From: an uncultured Thermoplasmatales archaeon
GTDB lineage: Archaea; Thermoplasmatota; E2; DHVEG-1
NCBI GenBank assembly: GCA_964638175.1
Contig: CAZWZY010000001.1
Coordinates: 62,257-126,256, forward strand
Direction of reading: 5' to 3'
DNA: 64,000 nt
Position numbers and translations under genes: made by a program. Of the stretch, positions 4,031-12,360 are shown one piece after another. The first letter of the stretch is position 1. Every line of letters starts with the position of its first letter. The notes under the pieces were generated by a model, which did not search any database, had not been told where the DNA came from, and worked only from the letters and a program-made list of their open reading frames with translations.

Positions 4031-5320
4031 ATGTCTAAGATTATGAGCATACATGCCCGCGAAGTACTTGATTCCAGAGGGAACCCGACTGTTGAAGTCG
4101 ATGTGAAAACAGACCAAGGCATCTTTCGTGCCATGACGCCTAGCGGTGCCAGTGCAGGTCAACACGAAGCGTTAGAATTACGTGATAACGACAAAACAAG
4201 ATATCTTGGCAAAGGAACTTTAAAAGCAGTTGGGCATGTGAATAATGACCTTGTTCCTAAACTGATTGATCTTGATTGTGGTGCGCAAGAAACCATTGAC
4301 AATATTATGATTAAACTTGATGGTACCGAGAACAAAGAAACATTTGGTGCAAACGCTATTCTTCCAATATCAATGGCGGTAACAAAAGCAGGTGCCGCAT
4401 CAAAGGGTCTTTCCTTGTACGAATACATTGGCGAATTGTTTGGCGTGGTTCCACATAAGTTACCTGTACCCATGTGTAATGTTATTAATGGAGGAAAACA
4501 CGCAGGCCAAGAAAATTCTATCCAAGAACACATGCTTATGCCTACTGGTGCAAAAACTTTTACTGAAGGAATTAGGATGGTTTCAGAAACGTATCATCAT
4601 CTTGCCGCCTTATTAAAAAAGAAGTTTGGTGCCAGTGGCTTACTCATCGGTGATGAGGGGGGGTTTGCCCCTGCAAAACTCACCGAAGTGCATGATCGTC
4701 TGGAACTGATGCTGAAGGCCGTTGATCTTGCAGGCTATACCGATATGATGAACGTAGCGCTTGATCCTGCATCTAGCGAATTTTTTTATGATGGTACCTA
4801 CAAAATAGGGAAAAAGACATTCACTGGAAAAGAGATGGTTGATTTTTATGTTGACCTCTGTAAAACTTTTCCCATTGTCAGTATCGAAGATGGTCTTGCT
4901 GAAGATGATTGGGGCTCATGGGTAGAAATGACAAAAAAACTAGGGACAGAGGTGCAAATTGTCGGTGATGATTTGTTTGTCACTAACACCAAACGAATTG
5001 CGGAAGGCATTAAGCTCGATGCTGCTAATTCCGTGCTCATTAAATTGAATCAAATTGGAACCGTCACAGAGACATTAAATGCCATTAAGATGGCTCACGA
5101 TGCGGGATGGACAGCAGTAGTCAGTCACCGAAGTGGGGAAACAGAAGATAATTTTATCGCAGATTTAGTAGTCGGAACAAGTGCTGGACAGATTAAAACA
5201 GGGGCTCCTGCCAGAAGTGACCGTAATGCAAAATACAATCAACTGATTCGTATTGAAGAAGAATTAGAAGAACACGCAGAATATCCGGGCATCGATTTTC
5301 GGATGGATCACCTAGCGTAA
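4031..5320 (+). CDS. eno: Enolase
   Basis: Full-length match to the enolase pattern (MS..IHAREVLDSRGNPTVEV…SHRSGETED…). Confidence 0.95.
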   Translation: MSKIMSIHAREVLDSRGNPTVEVDVKTDQGIFRAMTPSGASAGQHEALELRDNDKTRYLGKGTLKAVGHVNNDLVPKLIDLDCGAQETIDNIMIKLDGTENKETFGANAILPISMAVTKAGAASKGLSLYEYIGELFGVVPHKLPVPMCNVINGGKHAGQENSIQEHMLMPTGAKTFTEGIRMVSETYHHLAALLKKKFGASGLLIGDEGGFAPAKLTEVHDRLELMLKAVDLAGYTDMMNVALDPASSEFFYDGTYKIGKKTFTGKEMVDFYVDLCKTFPIVSIEDGLAEDDWGSWVEMTKKLGTEVQIVGDDLFVTNTKRIAEGIKLDAANSVLIKLNQIGTVTETLNAIKMAHDAGWTAVVSHRSGETEDNFIADLVVGTSAGQIKTGAPARSDRNAKYNQLIRIEEELEEHAEYPGIDFRMDHLA

Positions 5321-5363
5321 ACATTTTTAGACCCTATCTGATATGGGCATTCGGGGTAGAATT

Positions 5364-6317
5364 ATGAAAGTATTAATTACTGATAAGATGGCAGAAGAAG
5401 CAATCCAATTGTTAAAAGATGCAGGTCACGAAGTTACCTATGAAGAAATGGATGCTCCCAAGCTTCTAAAGGAAATTTCCAACTATGATGCGTTAATGGT
5501 GCGTGGACGAACAAAAGCAGTAAAAGAAATTGTTGACGCGGGGGCAAAGGGACAGTTAAAAGTCATTGGTCGTGCTGGCATTGGAGTCGATAATATTGAT
5601 ATCAAAACTGCAGCAACTCATGGAATACCTGTGGTAAATGCACCTACGGGATCCACTATTAGTGTCGCTGAATTGACCATTGGTCATATGCTTTCGTTAT
5701 CCCGGCATCTCTACAAGGCAGATGCGACGATGAAGAAAGGAGAATGGGCAAAGAAGCAGTTGAAAGGTATCGAACTTCATGGTAAGACACTAGGACTCAT
5801 AGGGTGTGGAAATATCGGTAAAGTAACAGCAAAATTAGCCCAAGCCTTTGGCATGGATGTGATTGGATATGATCCTTTTCTTTCACAGGCAGAGCTGAAA
5901 AAAGACAACATCAAAAAAATTGAAGATCTCGGAGAGTTGATGGGCAAGACTGATTTTATCTCTCTTCACCTCCCCCATAATGAAAAAACACATCATATTG
6001 TCAATAAAGAAATGATTGGGGAAATGAAACCAAGTGCTTGTTTGATTAATTGTGCTCGTGGGGGAACAGTTGATGAACAAGCCTTGTATGATGCGTTAAA
6101 AAATGGAAAAATTGCAGGTGCAGGGCTTGATGTGTTTGAACAAGAGCCACCAACCAATAATCCACTTCTCTCCTTAGATAATGTCATGCTCACCCCACAT
6201 CTTGGCGCAAATACAAAAGAAGGGCAAATACGAGCGGGAACTGTTTGTGCTGAGCAAATTATTAAAGTATTAAACGGCAAAACCGCAGAGTATTGGATCA
6301 ATAAAAAATTCATGTAG
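5364..6317 (+). CDS. D-isomer-specific 2-hydroxyacid dehydrogenase (short D-3-phosphoglycerate dehydrogenase-like, no ACT domain)
   Basis: NAD-binding GxGxxG (GLIGCGNIG) and a catalytic-domain R/E/H pattern. Start set at MKVLITDK, preceded by GGGGT; the track ORF begins 21 nt earlier. Confidence 0.8.
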   Translation: MKVLITDKMAEEAIQLLKDAGHEVTYEEMDAPKLLKEISNYDALMVRGRTKAVKEIVDAGAKGQLKVIGRAGIGVDNIDIKTAATHGIPVVNAPTGSTISVAELTIGHMLSLSRHLYKADATMKKGEWAKKQLKGIELHGKTLGLIGCGNIGKVTAKLAQAFGMDVIGYDPFLSQAELKKDNIKKIEDLGELMGKTDFISLHLPHNEKTHHIVNKEMIGEMKPSACLINCARGGTVDEQALYDALKNGKIAGAGLDVFEQEPPTNNPLLSLDNVMLTPHLGANTKEGQIRAGTVCAEQIIKVLNGKTAEYWINKKFM

Positions 6318-6344: not shown

Positions 6345-7061
6345 TTGTTAGATACCATGAAAAATTTAGGACAAATTGTTGATAAAATTGGAAAAAGTAT
6401 CGATGAAAAAGATAAAGCTCGGGAGCATGCTCTTCGCGCTTCTCGGGATATTATTATTGGGTGCCGAAAGGCAATTCAGTGTTTACATCAGGAGAAAATG
6501 AAAGACGCGAGCACTCATATTAAAAAGTCACATCGAGAGTTGTTGAAACTCTATGAAGTAACAAAAACATATAGTGATTTATCACATGCGGGCTTTGTAG
6601 AAAACGCAGCACAGGAAGTTGTAGAAGCACAATGCCTGATGAACATTATGCGAGGCAAAGAGCTACCTGACCCAGACGAAATGAAAACCACCTACAGTTC
6701 GTATCTGCTTGGTCTCTGTGATATAGTTGGTGAGCTCCGAAGACGGGCGTTGGATTTTATTCGGAAGGGGAAGGAGGAAAAAGCAAATGAGTGTCTTGAC
6801 ATGATGGAAGAAATCTACAATGCCCTCATTCATTTTGATTACCCTTCAACCCTTGTTCCTATCCGAAAAAAACAAGATATGGCACGAGGTCTTATCGAGC
6901 GGACACGAGGAGAACTTGCCATTGCCAGTTGTGAACGGCGGATCGAATATCGTACTGACGAATTTAGGGGCATTCTTGATCGTATGAACGGCAATGAGAA
7001 ACCAACAAAACAAAAAAAGAATGGAAAACCTTCTGATTTAGATATCGACAAAGTATGGTAA
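6345..7061 (+). CDS. Translin-family protein (putative)
   Basis: Pattern …REHALRASRDIII…YLLGLCDIVGELRRRALD… resembles archaeal translin-like proteins; recalled from memory, no search run. Confidence 0.45.
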   Translation: MLDTMKNLGQIVDKIGKSIDEKDKAREHALRASRDIIIGCRKAIQCLHQEKMKDASTHIKKSHRELLKLYEVTKTYSDLSHAGFVENAAQEVVEAQCLMNIMRGKELPDPDEMKTTYSSYLLGLCDIVGELRRRALDFIRKGKEEKANECLDMMEEIYNALIHFDYPSTLVPIRKKQDMARGLIERTRGELAIASCERRIEYRTDEFRGILDRMNGNEKPTKQKKNGKPSDLDIDKVW

Positions 7062-7097: not shown

Positions 7098-7120
7098 TTT
7101 ATATAAAGCCTTTATATACT
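7098..7120 (+). promoter_or_regulatory. TATA-box-like elements upstream of the first TBP gene
   Basis: tttatataaag and ctttatatact lie 26-48 nt upstream of the ATG at 7146. Confidence 0.35.
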
Positions 7121-7145
7121 TCAGGGAGGGAAGGCTGACCTTATT

Positions 7146-7691
7146 ATGGCAGAAATTACCATTGAAAATATAGTCGCTTCTGCACAACTTGCAGACAAAT
7201 TGGATATTCAGCAGATAGCAGATGCCATACCCGAATCAAAGTACAATCCTGACAGCTTTCCCGGTCTTGTTCTCCATTTTGAAGAACCGAAGACGGCAAC
7301 CCTACTATTCTCTAGTGGGAAATTTATCTGTACCGGTGCCAAGCGAATGGAAGATGTGGCTATCGCTTTACAAAAGCTCGTTAGTAAAATGCAGGCTATC
7401 GGCATCAGTGTTAAAGAACAACCGAAGATGAAGGTGCAAAATATTGTCGTTTCTGCAAATCTCGGAAAAGAGTTTGAGCTGAATGATGTTGCCAAGGGTC
7501 TCTTACAGCAAAATGTAGAATACGAACCAGAACAATTTCCAGGATTGATTTATCGAATGGATGGTGCTGGTACTGTAATATTGTTATTTAGCTCGGGGAA
7601 ATTAGTATGTACAGGGGCAAAAGCAATAGAAGAAGCAACAGCTGCCGTTGACCTGATGAAGGAAAAGCTAGCATCATTGGGAGTTTTATAA
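7146..7691 (+). CDS. tbp: TATA-box binding protein (paralog 1)
   Basis: Two TBP direct repeats, each with an …FPGL.YR…TALLF.SGK..CTGAK… motif. Confidence 0.95.
   Translation: MAEITIENIVASAQLADKLDIQQIADAIPESKYNPDSFPGLVLHFEEPKTATLLFSSGKFICTGAKRMEDVAIALQKLVSKMQAIGISVKEQPKMKVQNIVVSANLGKEFELNDVAKGLLQQNVEYEPEQFPGLIYRMDGAGTVILLFSSGKLVCTGAKAIEEATAAVDLMKEKLASLGVL
7518..7543 (+). repeat. 26-nt segment (GAATACGAACCAGAACAATTTCCAGG) shared with both halves of the second TBP gene
   Basis: Identical nucleotide string encoding EYEPEQFPG in the C-terminal repeat of TBP1. Confidence 0.8.
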
Positions 7692-7705
7692 AAGGAGGAA
7701 AAATT

Positions 7706-8257
7706 ATGCCAGAAGTAATTGTAGAAAATATCGTGGCATCAACGTCCTTTTCAGATAAATTGGATTTAGATGTCATAGCGCAATCGCTAGAAGAAGCAGA
7801 ATACGAACCAGAACAATTTCCAGGCCTTGTCTATCGGCTTGACGAACCGAAAACAGCAACCTTGCTCTTTAGAAGTGGAAAGGCAAACTGCACAGGTGCA
7901 AAGAATGTTCAAGATGTGAAAAAAACGGTAGATATTATTGCAGAAAAACTCAGAAAACTTGGTGTAGACGTCTATAAAGATCTCAAGATTGTCATTCAGA
8001 ATATTGTTGCCATTTCTGACCTTGGTACTGAGCTGAATCTGAATGAAGTGGCAATGGGGCTTGGGTTAGAAAATGTTGAATACGAACCGGAACAATTTCC
8101 AGGCCTTGTATACAGAATTAAAGAACCAAAAGTCGCGATGTTGCTCTTTGGTTCTGGAAAAATCGTCTGCACCGGCGCACGAAAAACTGAAGATGTGTCA
8201 CTTGCAGTCGATAAACTCTCAGCAGAACTGAGTTCGTTGGATCTCATTAGGAAGTAA
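7706..8257 (+). CDS. tbp: TATA-box binding protein (paralog 2), in tandem with paralog 1
   Basis: Same two-repeat TBP architecture, roughly half identical to paralog 1. Starts 14 nt after the paralog 1 stop. Confidence 0.95.
   Translation: MPEVIVENIVASTSFSDKLDLDVIAQSLEEAEYEPEQFPGLVYRLDEPKTATLLFRSGKANCTGAKNVQDVKKTVDIIAEKLRKLGVDVYKDLKIVIQNIVAISDLGTELNLNEVAMGLGLENVEYEPEQFPGLVYRIKEPKVAMLLFGSGKIVCTGARKTEDVSLAVDKLSAELSSLDLIRK
7799..7830 (+). repeat. 32-nt intragenic and intergenic TBP repeat copy (TBP2 N-terminal half)
   Basis: gaatacgaaccagaacaatttccaggccttgt. Confidence 0.8.
8078..8109 (+). repeat. 32-nt TBP repeat copy (TBP2 C-terminal half), one mismatch to the 7799-7830 copy
   Basis: gaatacgaaccGgaacaatttccaggccttgt. 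Confidence 0.8.
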
Positions 8258-8259
8258 GA

Positions 8260-8283
8260 TCCAATTCTTTTCTTTTTTTATTT
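8260..8283 (+). terminator. Oligo-T tract after the TBP2 stop (archaeal terminator-like)
   Basis: ttcttttctttttttatttg immediately downstream of the stop at 8255-8257. Confidence 0.3.
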
Positions 8284-9073: not shown

Positions 9074-10525
9074 TTATTTCGAACGATTTGCAGCCATGAT
9101 GACTGCCTGCACGGCAGCCGTAGCTGCTGCTGTTTTTGGTGCAGTTGATTGGGTTTTTGTTTCTTTTACATGGGCAATCACTTGATCAAGGATGTTGTAC
9201 CGAGGGATGAAACTCGTATCATAGATTCCTTTTTTCCACTGTAGATTATTCATTACTACCTGGTGGAAGGGTATGTTGTGTCGTACGCCGCCGATTTGGA
9301 ACTCCCACAATGCTCGTTTAGTTCGTTCTATGCATCGGCTTCTGTCTTCAGCCCAGACAATTAATTTGGCAATCATCGAATCGTAGAATGATGGAATAGT
9401 AAACCCTTGATATACTCCAGAGTCGATTCGAATACCTGGACCAGAGGGCTCTGCATATCTGATAATTTTACTTGGTGCCGGCATAAAGTTATTGAGAGGA
9501 TCTTCTGCATTTATTCGACATTCAATGGCATGACCTCGTGGATGAATGTCGTTCTGTTCGTACTCAAGCTTGAGCCCTGATGCAACTCGGATCTGTTCTC
9601 GTGCCAAATCAACTCCGGTGATTGCTTCAGTGATAGGGTGTTCTACTTGTAAACGGGTGTTCATTTCCAAAAAGTAATACTTGCCGTCTTTAAACATAAA
9701 TTCGCAGGTTCCTGCGTTGTAATATCCTGCTGTTTTTGCAGCAAGAACTGCTTGTTTTCCGATTTCTCTCCTAAGATCTGGAGTTAACGCGCAGGATGGG
9801 GTTTCCTCAATAAGTTTTTGATGTCGGCGTTGTACACTACACTCCCTTTCGTAACAATGAATAATGTGTCCTTTTTTATCGCCAATTATTTGGTATTCGA
9901 TATGACGAGGGTCTTGGATGAATTTTTCAATAAAAACAGCATCGTCGCCAAAGGAATTTTTTGCCAATTGGCGAACAGATGCAAGAGCTTTTTCCATTTT
10001 CTTTTCATCTTCAACCATTTGAATGCCGATACCGCCTCCACCGGCAGAGGCTTTTAACATAATTGGGTACCCGATATCATGAGCAATATCTTTCGCTCGT
10101 TCATGATCTTTGATGGCTTCAGTGACCCCTGGTACCACATGAACGCCTGCTTTCATCATGGACTTTTTTGAATCGATCTTTGATCCCATAAGTTTCATAG
10201 CAGAAACGGGCGGCCCGATGAATTCGATGCCATTTTTATGACAAAGTTCAGCAAATTCTGCGTTTTCAGCCATGAATCCATATCCTGGGTGAATGCCTTC
10301 TGCCTTTGTTTTTAAAGCAACATCAATAATTTTTTGTTTTTGTAGATAACTTTGACTTGCAGGCCCTGGGCCGATATTATATTTTTCATCAGCATATCTG
10401 ACAAAAAGAGCTTTGGCATCAGCATCAGAATAAACGGCGACGGTTGCTATGTCAAGTTCTTTGCATGCCCTCATGATACGGACGGCGATTTCGCCTCGAT
10501 TGGCAATCAGAATCTTGTTGATCAT
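9074..10525 (-). CDS. pycA: Pyruvate carboxylase subunit A (biotin carboxylase)
   Basis: ATP-grasp biotin carboxylase pattern (…GYGFMAENAEFA…EMNTRLQVEHPITE…), 483 aa. Confidence 0.9.
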   Translation of the reverse strand: MINKILIANRGEIAVRIMRACKELDIATVAVYSDADAKALFVRYADEKYNIGPGPASQSYLQKQKIIDVALKTKAEGIHPGYGFMAENAEFAELCHKNGIEFIGPPVSAMKLMGSKIDSKKSMMKAGVHVVPGVTEAIKDHERAKDIAHDIGYPIMLKASAGGGGIGIQMVEDEKKMEKALASVRQLAKNSFGDDAVFIEKFIQDPRHIEYQIIGDKKGHIIHCYERECSVQRRHQKLIEETPSCALTPDLRREIGKQAVLAAKTAGYYNAGTCEFMFKDGKYYFLEMNTRLQVEHPITEAITGVDLAREQIRVASGLKLEYEQNDIHPRGHAIECRINAEDPLNNFMPAPSKIIRYAEPSGPGIRIDSGVYQGFTIPSFYDSMIAKLIVWAEDRSRCIERTKRALWEFQIGGVRHNIPFHQVVMNNLQWKKGIYDTSFIPRYNILDQVIAHVKETKTQSTAPKTAAATAAVQAVIMAANRSK

Positions 10526-10536
10526 ATTAATTCCTC

Positions 10537-12360
10537 TTAAAGAATCTGCATAATAAGATCGCCACTATTAACAGAATCGCCTTCTTTGATGAAAATGTCT
10601 TTTACCTCCCCTTCCTTTTCCGTTTTAATTTCTTGCTCCATCTTCATAGCTTCAATAGTTGCAAGAACATCTCCTTTTTTTACCGTATCTCCTTTTTTTA
10701 CCTTCAACGAAAGGATAGTGCCCTGCATGTTTGATTTTACGCCACCTTCAACATCTTTTGGTTTTGCTTGAGACGAGGAACTACCTTCACCTGCAACGAC
10801 AAATCCGCCAGAAGGAATAACTTTAACTTCGTAAGGTTCTCCATCTACTTCAACCTCAAATTCGGTGGGAATTTGTGCGGGTCCTGCGCGTTCCTCTGGT
10901 GGAACGGTCTCAATCCATATCGCTTTATGCTCAGGGAACGACTGTTTTACCATTGCTCGAGTGAGTGGATGGTCAACGGGCAAAGGTAGTTGCTCCGAGG
11001 TAAATTCTGCTTTTGCCTCCCCTTTTAAGAACTTGAGGCCAACTTGTGGAAAGAGGATATATGTCATGATATCTTCTTCTTTTTTGATAAGTAAACCATC
11101 GTCCATCTCCTGCAATTCCTTCTTTTTTGCATCCCACATGGGCTTTATCATATCGGATGGTCTACAGTCAATGACTTCGTCTTTCCATTTGGGGCCCAAT
11201 ACTTTTTTCATGATTTCGGGTTTAATGGGGACTGGTGGTTTGCCATACATCCCTTTACAATAATCCTTAGTTTCTTTCGTAATAACTTTGTACCGACCGT
11301 GAAGTACATTCATCACTGCTTGCACGCCAACTACTTGACTTGATGGCGTAACAAGCGGAGGATATCCAAGCTCTTCACGGACACGTGCGGTCTCATCCAA
11401 AATTTCTCTATATTTTCCATGAGCGCCCTGCTCTTCAAGTTGGAAAATAAGATTTGAAAGCATACCGCCCGGAACCTGATGAACAGTAACACTGGGATCA
11501 ACCTTCAAGGCATTAAATCGATGGAGGTGCCGGTATTTTTCCCATACCTTAAGAAAATATTTTCTGATTTCGATGAGGTGTCCAAGATCATATCCTGTTT
11601 CCCATGGAGTACTTTGAAATGCTGCGACAACGCTTTCGGTTGCTGGTGCAGCAGTTCCCCCAGAAATCGGAGACATGGCCGTGTCCAGGACATCAATTCC
11701 TGCCTCTGCGGCCCGCTGATAGGCCATACCTGTCATACCACTCGTGCAGTGAGAATGAAGATTTATGGGAAGTTTTATTCCTGCGTCTTTGACTCCTTTA
11801 ACAATATCATAGACCCGTTGTGGTGAAATCATCCCAGCCATATCTTTTATACAAAGAGAATCTGCACCAATTTTTTCGAGTTTTTTAAATTTATCGACAA
11901 AATAGTCGACAGTATGTATTGGGGAGATGGTGTAACTCAAACAGGCCTGTACGTGGCCACCGTTTTCTCTTACAGCTTTCATAGGCACTTCCATGTTTCT
12001 GATATCGTTTAATGCATCAAAAATCCGGAAGTTGTCGACACCGTTCTTTTTTGCAAAATAAATAAATTTTTTTACGACATCATCAGGAAAATTCCAGTAT
12101 GCAACAATATTCATGGCACGTTCAAGCATTTGCATAGGTGTATTGGGCATCGCCTTTTTCAGCAAGCGAATGCGTTCCCAGGGATCCTGATTCAAATATC
12201 TAATAGAAACATCAAATGTTGCTCCTCCCCATACTTCAAGGGAAAAAAATCCCACTGCGTCAAGTTTATCGGCAATGGGCAGCATGTCTTCCGTCCGCAT
12301 TCTTGTGGCAAGCATTGATTGATGAGCATCTCTCAAAATCATTTCATGTAATTGAACCAT
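10537..12360 (-). CDS. pycB: Pyruvate carboxylase subunit B (carboxyltransferase plus biotin carboxyl-carrier domain)
   Basis: Pyruvate carboxyltransferase TIM-barrel region and a C-terminal biotinyl domain with the EAMKME attachment motif. Confidence 0.9.
   Translation of the reverse strand: MVQLHEMILRDAHQSMLATRMRTEDMLPIADKLDAVGFFSLEVWGGATFDVSIRYLNQDPWERIRLLKKAMPNTPMQMLERAMNIVAYWNFPDDVVKKFIYFAKKNGVDNFRIFDALNDIRNMEVPMKAVRENGGHVQACLSYTISPIHTVDYFVDKFKKLEKIGADSLCIKDMAGMISPQRVYDIVKGVKDAGIKLPINLHSHCTSGMTGMAYQRAAEAGIDVLDTAMSPISGGTAAPATESVVAAFQSTPWETGYDLGHLIEIRKYFLKVWEKYRHLHRFNALKVDPSVTVHQVPGGMLSNLIFQLEEQGAHGKYREILDETARVREELGYPPLVTPSSQVVGVQAVMNVLHGRYKVITKETKDYCKGMYGKPPVPIKPEIMKKVLGPKWKDEVIDCRPSDMIKPMWDAKKKELQEMDDGLLIKKEEDIMTYILFPQVGLKFLKGEAKAEFTSEQLPLPVDHPLTRAMVKQSFPEHKAIWIETVPPEERAGPAQIPTEFEVEVDGEPYEVKVIPSGGFVVAGEGSSSSQAKPKDVEGGVKSNMQGTILSLKVKKGDTVKKGDVLATIEAMKMEQEIKTEKEGEVKDIFIKEGDSVNSGDLIMQIL

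Follow-up and report, generated by a model that had tools for sequence, protein, structure and literature searches.

Two complete genes for the TATA-binding protein (TBP) lie in tandem at positions 7146 to 8257 of the DNA analysed here, a 64-kb stretch (the window) from an uncultured Thermoplasmatales archaeon. Within and between these genes a nucleotide string encoding a conserved peptide recurs nearly letter for letter, and the original prediction for the locus attributed this recurrence to recent gene conversion between repeats and paralogues. Its description of two complete TBP genes separated by 14 nucleotides (nt) is borne out by the open reading frames and by the two TBP domains found in each product. 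The genes, the spacer and the four copies of the motif are arranged as follows.

7146 to 7691, plus strand: TBP1, 181 amino acids, two PF00352 domains (E 5.6e-54), the fast-evolving paralogue
7239 to 7268, plus strand: TBP1 N-repeat motif, KYNPDSFPGL, diverged and lacking the shared nucleotide string, its longest in-register exact run with any repeat being 9 nt
7517 to 7543, plus strand: TBP1 C-repeat motif, (V)EYEPEQFPG, 27 nt identical to 7798-7824
7692 to 7705, plus strand: spacer between TBP1 and TBP2, 14 nt, AAGGAGGAAAAATT, with a Shine-Dalgarno-like GGAGG inside
7706 to 8257, plus strand: TBP2, 183 amino acids, two PF00352 domains (E 5.3e-61), the canonical and extremely conserved TBP
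7799 to 7830, plus strand: TBP2 N-repeat motif, EYEPEQFPGLV, the putative donor
8078 to 8109, plus strand: TBP2 C-repeat motif, the putative recipient of an N-to-C conversion

Both TBP1 and TBP2 contain two tandem TBP domains within one polypeptide of about 180 amino acids, and the structures closest to TBP2 are the solved archaeal TBPs 2z8u, 1pcz, 1ais and 1d3u (E 1e-48 to 1e-53). In published TBP-DNA structures two phenylalanines per repeat, at the FPGL and LLF-SGK positions, kink the DNA; in the translations, TBP1 and TBP2 keep the phenylalanines of xFPGL and of LLFxSGK in both of their repeats. Three of the four repeats at the locus encode EYEPEQFPGL. In TBP1 the EYEPEQ stirrup motif is confined to the C-repeat, the N-repeat stirrup (KYNPDSFPGL) having lost both glutamates, and from its sequence TBP1 is best described as an asymmetric TBP and TBP2 as a symmetric one. 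Among more distant upstream paralogues (L005-L012; L numbers designate the loci compared), V, A or T takes the place of the N-repeat phenylalanine.

The window has exactly three occurrences of the 26-mer GAATACGAACCRGAACAATTTCCAGG, at 7518, 7799 and 8078, and shuffling the sequence 100 times produced no match. These three copies lie in direct orientation on the same strand, 279-560 nt apart, and at each of the three positions the shared string encodes (V)EYEPEQFPGL, as originally described. The 32-mers reported for the two TBP2 repeats (7799-7830 and 8078-8109) are likewise present and differ by a single A/G mismatch at the proline codon. The 26 nt attributed to the TBP1 C-repeat (7518-7543) also hold, with the correction that the exact in-register run shared with the TBP2 N-repeat extends to 27 nt. 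The two proteins are otherwise about half identical, as had been claimed (49.7%), and pairwise alignment of the genes gave 57% nucleotide identity, with the motif standing out as an island from saturated sites. That the synonymous sites outside the motif are saturated follows from the degenerate residues at which TBP1 and TBP2 are identical, only 41 of 89 of which use the same codon. Between the N- and C-repeats of TBP2 in the window, the proportion of synonymous differences (pS) is 0.17 in the motif and 0.66 over the remainder of the repeat; the same two motifs are synonymously saturated with respect to one another in L081, a sister genome.

The role of chance within the window was assessed with the proteins held fixed and the synonymous codons redrawn or shuffled, under four null models. 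The codon-resampling nulls gave p=0.010-0.035 for the 27-nt exact run, p=0.015-0.055 for the 32-nt run when up to one mismatch was allowed and, depending on the null, p=0.0004-0.017 for all three pairs reaching at least 26 nt. Two independent codon draws from the codon usage of the window agree over EYEPEQFPGL with a probability of 2.4e-4, a figure to be read in the knowledge that many positions and six repeat pairs had been on offer. The excess of nucleotide identity in the window by itself is real but modest, suggestive and not decisive.

TBP2 is the canonical TBP of its Thermoplasmatota clade, in which many proteins share 85-95% identity with it, and its orthologues were assembled from 80 species representatives of GTDB, down to 60% identity. 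The closest species representatives also carry an upstream tandem paralogue, which is only 37-54% identical to TBP1 of the window. At L001 and L002, for instance, TBP2 is 95% identical and the upstream paralogue only 45-46%. True TBP1 orthologues (181 amino acids, 57-87% identical) were found in metagenomes; a metagenome scan gave 4 loci, and the set was enlarged by searching with the protein and looking up 12 contigs. In all TBP1-bearing relatives the gene order 2-hydroxyacid dehydrogenase, translin, TBP1, TBP2 is constant. In the nearest relatives, L081 and L085, the TBP2 protein is 100% identical and its gene differs by 55 synonymous changes (synonymous divergence, dS, 0.65), while TBP1 is 86-87% identical with a ratio of nonsynonymous to synonymous divergence (omega) of 0.07. 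Aligning window positions 7146-8257 with positions 2501-3612 of L081 gave 0 nonsynonymous against 55 synonymous differences in TBP2, and 24 nonsynonymous codon changes in TBP1. Its low omega and its retention in sister genomes with conserved synteny indicate that TBP1 is a functional, faster-evolving paralogue that holds the same position throughout the clade.

Both repeats of all 80 Thermoplasmatota TBP2 orthologues first examined, single-copy TBPs included, carry the peptide EYEPEQFPGL(V/I)Y without variation, so that identity of the motif at the protein level is a matter of plain purifying selection. In the published structures of TBP and of the TBP-TFB-DNA complex, the motif supplies each repeat with one of its two DNA-kinking phenylalanines and, in the C-repeat, also with the acidic residues that contact TFB; these two roles would explain its invariance. 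Its codons are another matter: every degenerate position varies among the 80 orthologues, and the universal codon string that would have spoken for convergent codon usage is absent. This free variation at synonymous sites also led us to reject a constraint on the nucleotides themselves, by which an RNA structure, a target of a small or antisense RNA or an internal regulatory site would hold the string in place. The sole and weak hint of such a function is a small terminator-like hairpin or inverted repeat, CTGGAAATTGTTCCGG, called on the minus strand at 8087-8102 within the TBP2 C-repeat motif. The hairpin depends on the G at 8089, the one base that sets this copy apart from the other two, and is probably meaningless; the shared strings, moreover, differ between closely related genomes. 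A nucleotide-level function is very improbable.

Evidence that copies within a genome are homogenised comes from a permutation set of 82 non-redundant TBP genes matched for GC content at third codon positions (GC3). The N- and C-repeat motifs of the same genome used the same codon in 562 of 927 comparisons, as against approximately 455-475 in GC3-matched comparisons across genomes (z 6.4-7.9). At non-motif positions where the two repeats share a residue, the corresponding count was 1044 against about 995 expected (z 2.5-3). In a comparison with invariant control columns, the same codon was used at 0.612 of motif positions within and 0.508 between genomes (z 7.1), and at 0.420 and 0.385, respectively, of the control columns (z 3.5). 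At least nine of ten N/C codons are identical in 7 of 55 low-GC3 genomes compared with 0.4% of cross-genome pairs, and the seven genomes carry seven different strings. Exact N-C runs of at least 20 nt, counted without GC3 matching, occur in 32% of genomes and 3% of cross pairs. Since shared ancestry can inflate permutation tests, 43 independent sister pairs were also used, in which matches in cis (N and C of one genome) were set against matches in trans (N of one genome, C of the other). The sum of cis minus trans was +55 at the motif (Wilcoxon p=0.011) and -11 at other positions (p=0.60), with the signal present both in the TBP1-bearing clade and in single-TBP lineages. Taken together, these comparisons make it quite probable that homogenisation at the motif occurs in this family.

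The history of the two TBP2 motifs in the window can be followed codon by codon against L081.

TBP2 N-repeat motif, window: ...TTT CCA GGC CTT GTC TAT
TBP2 N-repeat motif, L081: ...TTT CCA GGA CTT GTG TAT (2 of 12 codons differ)
TBP2 C-repeat motif, window: GAA TAC GAA CCG GAA CAA TTT CCA GGC CTT GTA TAC
TBP2 C-repeat motif, L081: GAA TAT GAG CCT GAA CAA TTC CCT GGC CTA GTG TAC (7 of 12 codons differ from the window)

Set against a background rate of 0.288, the seven codon differences in the C-repeat motif have a binomial p=0.031, and pS against L081 is 0.93 in this motif and 0.41 in the rest of the gene. All five informative changes in the C-repeat motif of the window (TAC, GAA, TTT, CCA and CTT) are to the state of the N-repeat. 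The motif differs from TBP2-N by three codons and from its own orthologue in L081 by seven, in a gene the remainder of which is 90% identical to that of L081. The codons TTC CCT GGC CTA are common to the TBP2 C-repeats of L081, L088 and L095, which suggests that they are ancestral. The simplest history, and the most likely one, would be a single N-to-C transfer in the lineage of the window followed by the change CCA>CCG; the change GGA>GGC in TBP2-N could be a point change, or else a short patch could have been copied from C to N. On balance, we believe that the identity of the two TBP2 motifs in the window reflects a conversion event. The gene conversion of the original prediction is upheld between TBP2-N and TBP2-C by the cross-genome excess and by the discordance with L081, and the word recent applies in a relative sense, the event post-dating a split of dS approximately 0.65.

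The C-repeat of TBP1 appears to participate as well. In five of the relatives it matches one or both TBP2 motifs of the same genome.

L084: TBP1-C matches TBP2-N and TBP2-C, 30/30 nt, by a string unlike that of the window
L087: TBP1-C matches TBP2-N with one mismatch
L095: TBP1-C matches TBP2-C with one mismatch
L090: TBP1-C matches TBP2-N over 26 nt
L092, sister of L090: TBP1-C matches TBP2-C over 26 nt, by a string that differs from that of L090

The strings shared at these five loci are lineage-specific, and the contrast between L090 and L092 is the cleanest sign of an ongoing exchange that would be able to go to either repeat. TBP1-C and the TBP2 motif nearest to it differ by 3.3 mismatches on average within genomes and by 4.9 between genomes (p=0.0036), and exact runs of at least 21 nt join TBP1-C to TBP2 in 60% of within-genome pairs and 10% of cross pairs. 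Of six sister pairs, five have fewer mismatches in cis than in trans and one is tied. Where the identity with TBP2 continues past the leucine codon, TBP1-C encodes valine, as TBP2 does, and not the usual isoleucine; such Ile-to-Val switches accompany the converted tracts of L084, L087, L090, L092, L093 and L094. The TBP1 N-repeat motif (KYNPDSFPGL, 7239-7268) took no part in the exchange in the TBP1-clade loci compared. Conversion of TBP1-C, the second part of the original claim, is thus supported at the level of the family and weak in the window, where the codons CAA TTT CCA GGA are already common to the window and L081, so that part of the 27-nt identity would be due to retained or preferred codons. 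That the identity of TBP1-C in this particular window reflects a conversion event is possible, though a shade under evenly balanced.

From the homogenisation within genomes and the discordance between orthologues and paralogues, both seen in the alignments, we infer a molecular mechanism and a direction of transfer. Because the peptide cannot change, the motif is an island of similarity amid saturated repeats: the invariant peptide would hold about 80% of the motif bases (about 25 of 30) identical between copies, cross-genome pairs differing at about five. Nowhere but on this island would the ancient repeats still be able to pair. Copies on one DNA molecule, at distances of 279-560 nt, would do so occasionally, and one would then be corrected to the other, by non-reciprocal short-tract conversion or an equivalent templated repair or replication switch, in a process that would wipe out the synonymous differences between them. 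In the window, the TBP2-N motif would have overwritten TBP2-C once the lineage had separated from its nearest sampled relative, with one point change to follow, and TBP1-C would be part of the same exchange in related genomes. Tracts would remain confined to the island if the flanks are too diverged to pair; alternatively, longer tracts would alter paralogue-specific residues and be selected against. Short-patch, discontinuous gene conversion has been documented among the archaea in Sulfolobus (PMC4471258).

A similar outcome could be reached by template switching in place of RadA-type recombination, with a nascent strand briefly copying a direct repeat 279-560 nt away and then returning. The closeness of the copies and their direct orientation on one strand are compatible with this, as are tracts that do not exceed approximately 30 nt and look patchy or mosaic (the GGC of the window, for example, apparently moved in the opposite direction to the other changes). 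The island is also shorter than the homology usually thought to be needed for recombinase-mediated exchange in bacterial systems. However, template switching would leave the same footprint as short-patch conversion, and equally short, discontinuous tracts are found in Sulfolobus (PMC4471258). Neither mechanism is directly favoured by the data, and we regard template switching as a rather unlikely account.

Several observations weigh against recurrent conversion. The window taken alone yields modest significance for a feature that was picked out post hoc, and the shared string consists mostly of codons that the genome prefers (GAA 0.74, CAA 0.67, TTT 0.78). The within-genome excess in the control columns (z 3.5) means that some genome-specific codon preference survives GC3 matching. 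The robust sister-pair test reaches only p=0.011, or p=0.10 and 0.03 when split by clade, and the outgroups on which the polarisation of changes depends are near synonymous saturation. In TBP1-C of the window the sole change that is clearly derived towards TBP2-N is TAT>TAC, and the cis-trans contrast between window and L081 is zero. All relatives are metagenome assemblies, and neither a recombination intermediate nor a polymorphic haplotype came to light. Finally, a codon-context bias may act alike on identical peptides.

Many of these points are equally arguments for the absence of any transfer, with the three copies evolving independently under an invariant peptide, the codon preferences of the genome and chance. 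With the peptide invariant in 80 TBP genes, at least 20 of 30 bases would be fixed in any case; preferred codons, window p values of 0.01-0.055 and a single derived change in TBP1-C fit the same account, and the small excess in the control columns is attributable to codon preference. Independent evolution does not, however, readily accommodate the localisation of the excess to the motif, either in the permutations (z 7 against 3.5 in controls) or in the sister pairs (p=0.011 against 0.60). It also leaves unexplained a heavy tail of near-perfect matches by strings that differ from lineage to lineage, and the matching of different partners in the sister genomes L090 and L092. Within the window, the TBP2-C motif is nearer to the paralogous motif than to its orthologue, and the minority codons TAC (0.24) and GGC (0.19) are nevertheless shared between motif copies. 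Independent evolution is therefore unlikely, if still to be taken seriously. Recurrent short-tract gene conversion acting on a peptide-constrained island appears to be the best reading of the pattern, and we consider it probable.

The original prediction had added that the repeated string could be a substrate for recombination that makes chimeric TBPs, and for this we found no support. Protein databases do hold candidates built as recombination at the motif would lead one to expect. In P0001 (L097, 56-925) TBP2 is preceded, in one fused protein, by a TBP1-like N-repeat and half of a C-repeat; P0002 (L098, 420-1016) has looped repeats and P0018 has three repeats. The first two, P0001 and P0002, are singletons, each found on a contig of 1.2-1.6 kb from one sample of the Joint Genome Institute (JGI), and L098, the source of P0002, joins two non-identical strains and then continues into an unrelated GC-rich tail. 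As one-sample singletons, one of them on a demonstrably mixed-strain misassembly, they led us to reject the set as evidence for real recombinant TBPs; the three-repeat and looped entries look like assembly chimeras formed at the repeated k-mer.

That assemblers misjoin at the motif, P0001/L097 and P0002/L098 being joined exactly there, raises the question of whether short-read collapse or cross-joining could have produced a false identity in the window itself. A misjoin alters what follows a repeat, not the bases within it, and 32 nt is less than the length of a read. In addition, the two TBP genes of the window are intact, and their arrangement is collinear and syntenic with that of over 15 independent assemblies. 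An assembly artefact is scarcely credible as the source of the identity.

The remaining features of the locus concern its expression and its neighbours. The promoter and terminator scanner that was run is sigma-70 based and not applicable to archaeal promoters; the elements flanking the TBP genes were read from the sequence.

4031 to 5320: enolase
5343 to 6317: 2-hydroxyacid dehydrogenase
6345 to 7061: translin-family protein
7098 to 7119, plus strand: two TATA-box-like elements, TTTATATAAAG and CTTTATATAC, 5' of TBP1
8266 to 8283, plus strand: oligo-T tract directly 3' of the TBP2 stop codon
8278 to 9069, minus strand: biotin-protein ligase
9074 to 12360, minus strand: biotin carboxylase and carboxyltransferase/biotinyl-carrier protein, which resemble the two subunits of pyruvate carboxylase

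Together with a GGGAGGG, the TATA-like pair (7098-7130) lies 16-48 nt 5' of the TBP1 start codon, and a double TATA-like element precedes TBP1 in L081-L084 as well; it represents a putative archaeal promoter of the TBP1-TBP2 pair. The spacer between the two genes, with its GGAGG, is conserved in L081-L084 at 14-19 nt. Oligo-T tracts serve as terminators in archaea, and the tract at 8266-8283 is likely to signal termination here, both for the TBP genes and for the convergent biotin ligase gene. A 14-nt spacer is too small for a promoter or terminator, and with the TATA-like pair upstream and the oligo-T tract after TBP2 we infer that TBP1 and TBP2 are co-transcribed as a single unit. Two TATA boxes before a TBP operon could permit autoregulation.

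The tufA/tufB pair is one known case in which duplicated genes evolve in concert. The rRNA operons, which do so by ectopic gene conversion (PMC8022953), are another, and the TBP genes resemble them in non-reciprocal homogenisation within a genome, in paralogues that are more alike than orthologues and in lineage-specific variants. The TBP case differs in that the tract is only about 26-35 nt long and lies inside anciently diverged, otherwise saturated repeats, in that the exchange would link the two halves of one gene and a neighbouring paralogue, and in that it touches only synonymous sites and one Ile/Val site. Multiple TBP paralogues are themselves familiar, as in Halobacterium (TbpA-F) and Methanosarcina (TBP1-3). 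Such paralogues have been reviewed (PMC7221094). Like these genera, the archaeon of the window carries several complete TBP genes of two repeats each, one of them conserved and the extra one divergent; unlike them, its extra TBP gene stands immediately upstream of the canonical gene, apparently on the same transcript, and has an N-repeat stirrup that has lost the acidic residues. The short-patch conversion of Sulfolobus acidocaldarius (PMC4471258) is comparable in being archaeal, with very short, patchy tracts and a mosaic appearance. That work was experimental and concerned introduced DNA and allelic sites in a crenarchaeon, whereas the present case is one of comparative genomics, ectopic copies and uncultured Thermoplasmatota.

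Closest in its object is the 'internal molecular clock' dDR, the nucleotide distance between TBP repeats (PMC4910066), which is based on the same divergence of N- and C-repeats in archaeal TBP genes. It assumes that the repeats diverged independently after one ancient duplication, whereas the present data indicate local exchange. Conversion or recombination between TBP repeats is not mentioned in that study, nor is conversion between the repeats in a broad study of TBP evolution (PMC7221094), and a literature search of limited coverage found no report of it. Gene conversion, concerted evolution and multiple archaeal TBPs are known; conversion between the repeats of TBP is apparently unreported.

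The finding leaves the function of TBP unchanged, and the process itself is textbook. One practical consequence is a hazard in assembly, the repeated k-mer yielding false three-repeat TBPs that are now in protein databases. For the family, we lean slightly towards the view that the island coding for EYEPEQFPGL is a recurrent micro-conversion hotspot across an archaeal phylum, coupling the two halves of TBP and the tandem paralogue, so that the repeats are not independent. If this is true, clocks for the origin of the transcription machinery that rest on repeat divergence, such as dDR (PMC4910066), would be biased, and synonymous-site analyses of repeat proteins would have to allow for exchange. 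Approximately 30 bases kept similar by protein constraint alone would suffice for repeated exchange in archaea, even between halves of a gene that separated before the divergence of archaea and eukaryotes. Conversion could also help to keep the TFB-contacting stirrup of the fast-evolving paralogue canonical, with which the Ile-to-Val switches in TBP1-C would fit.

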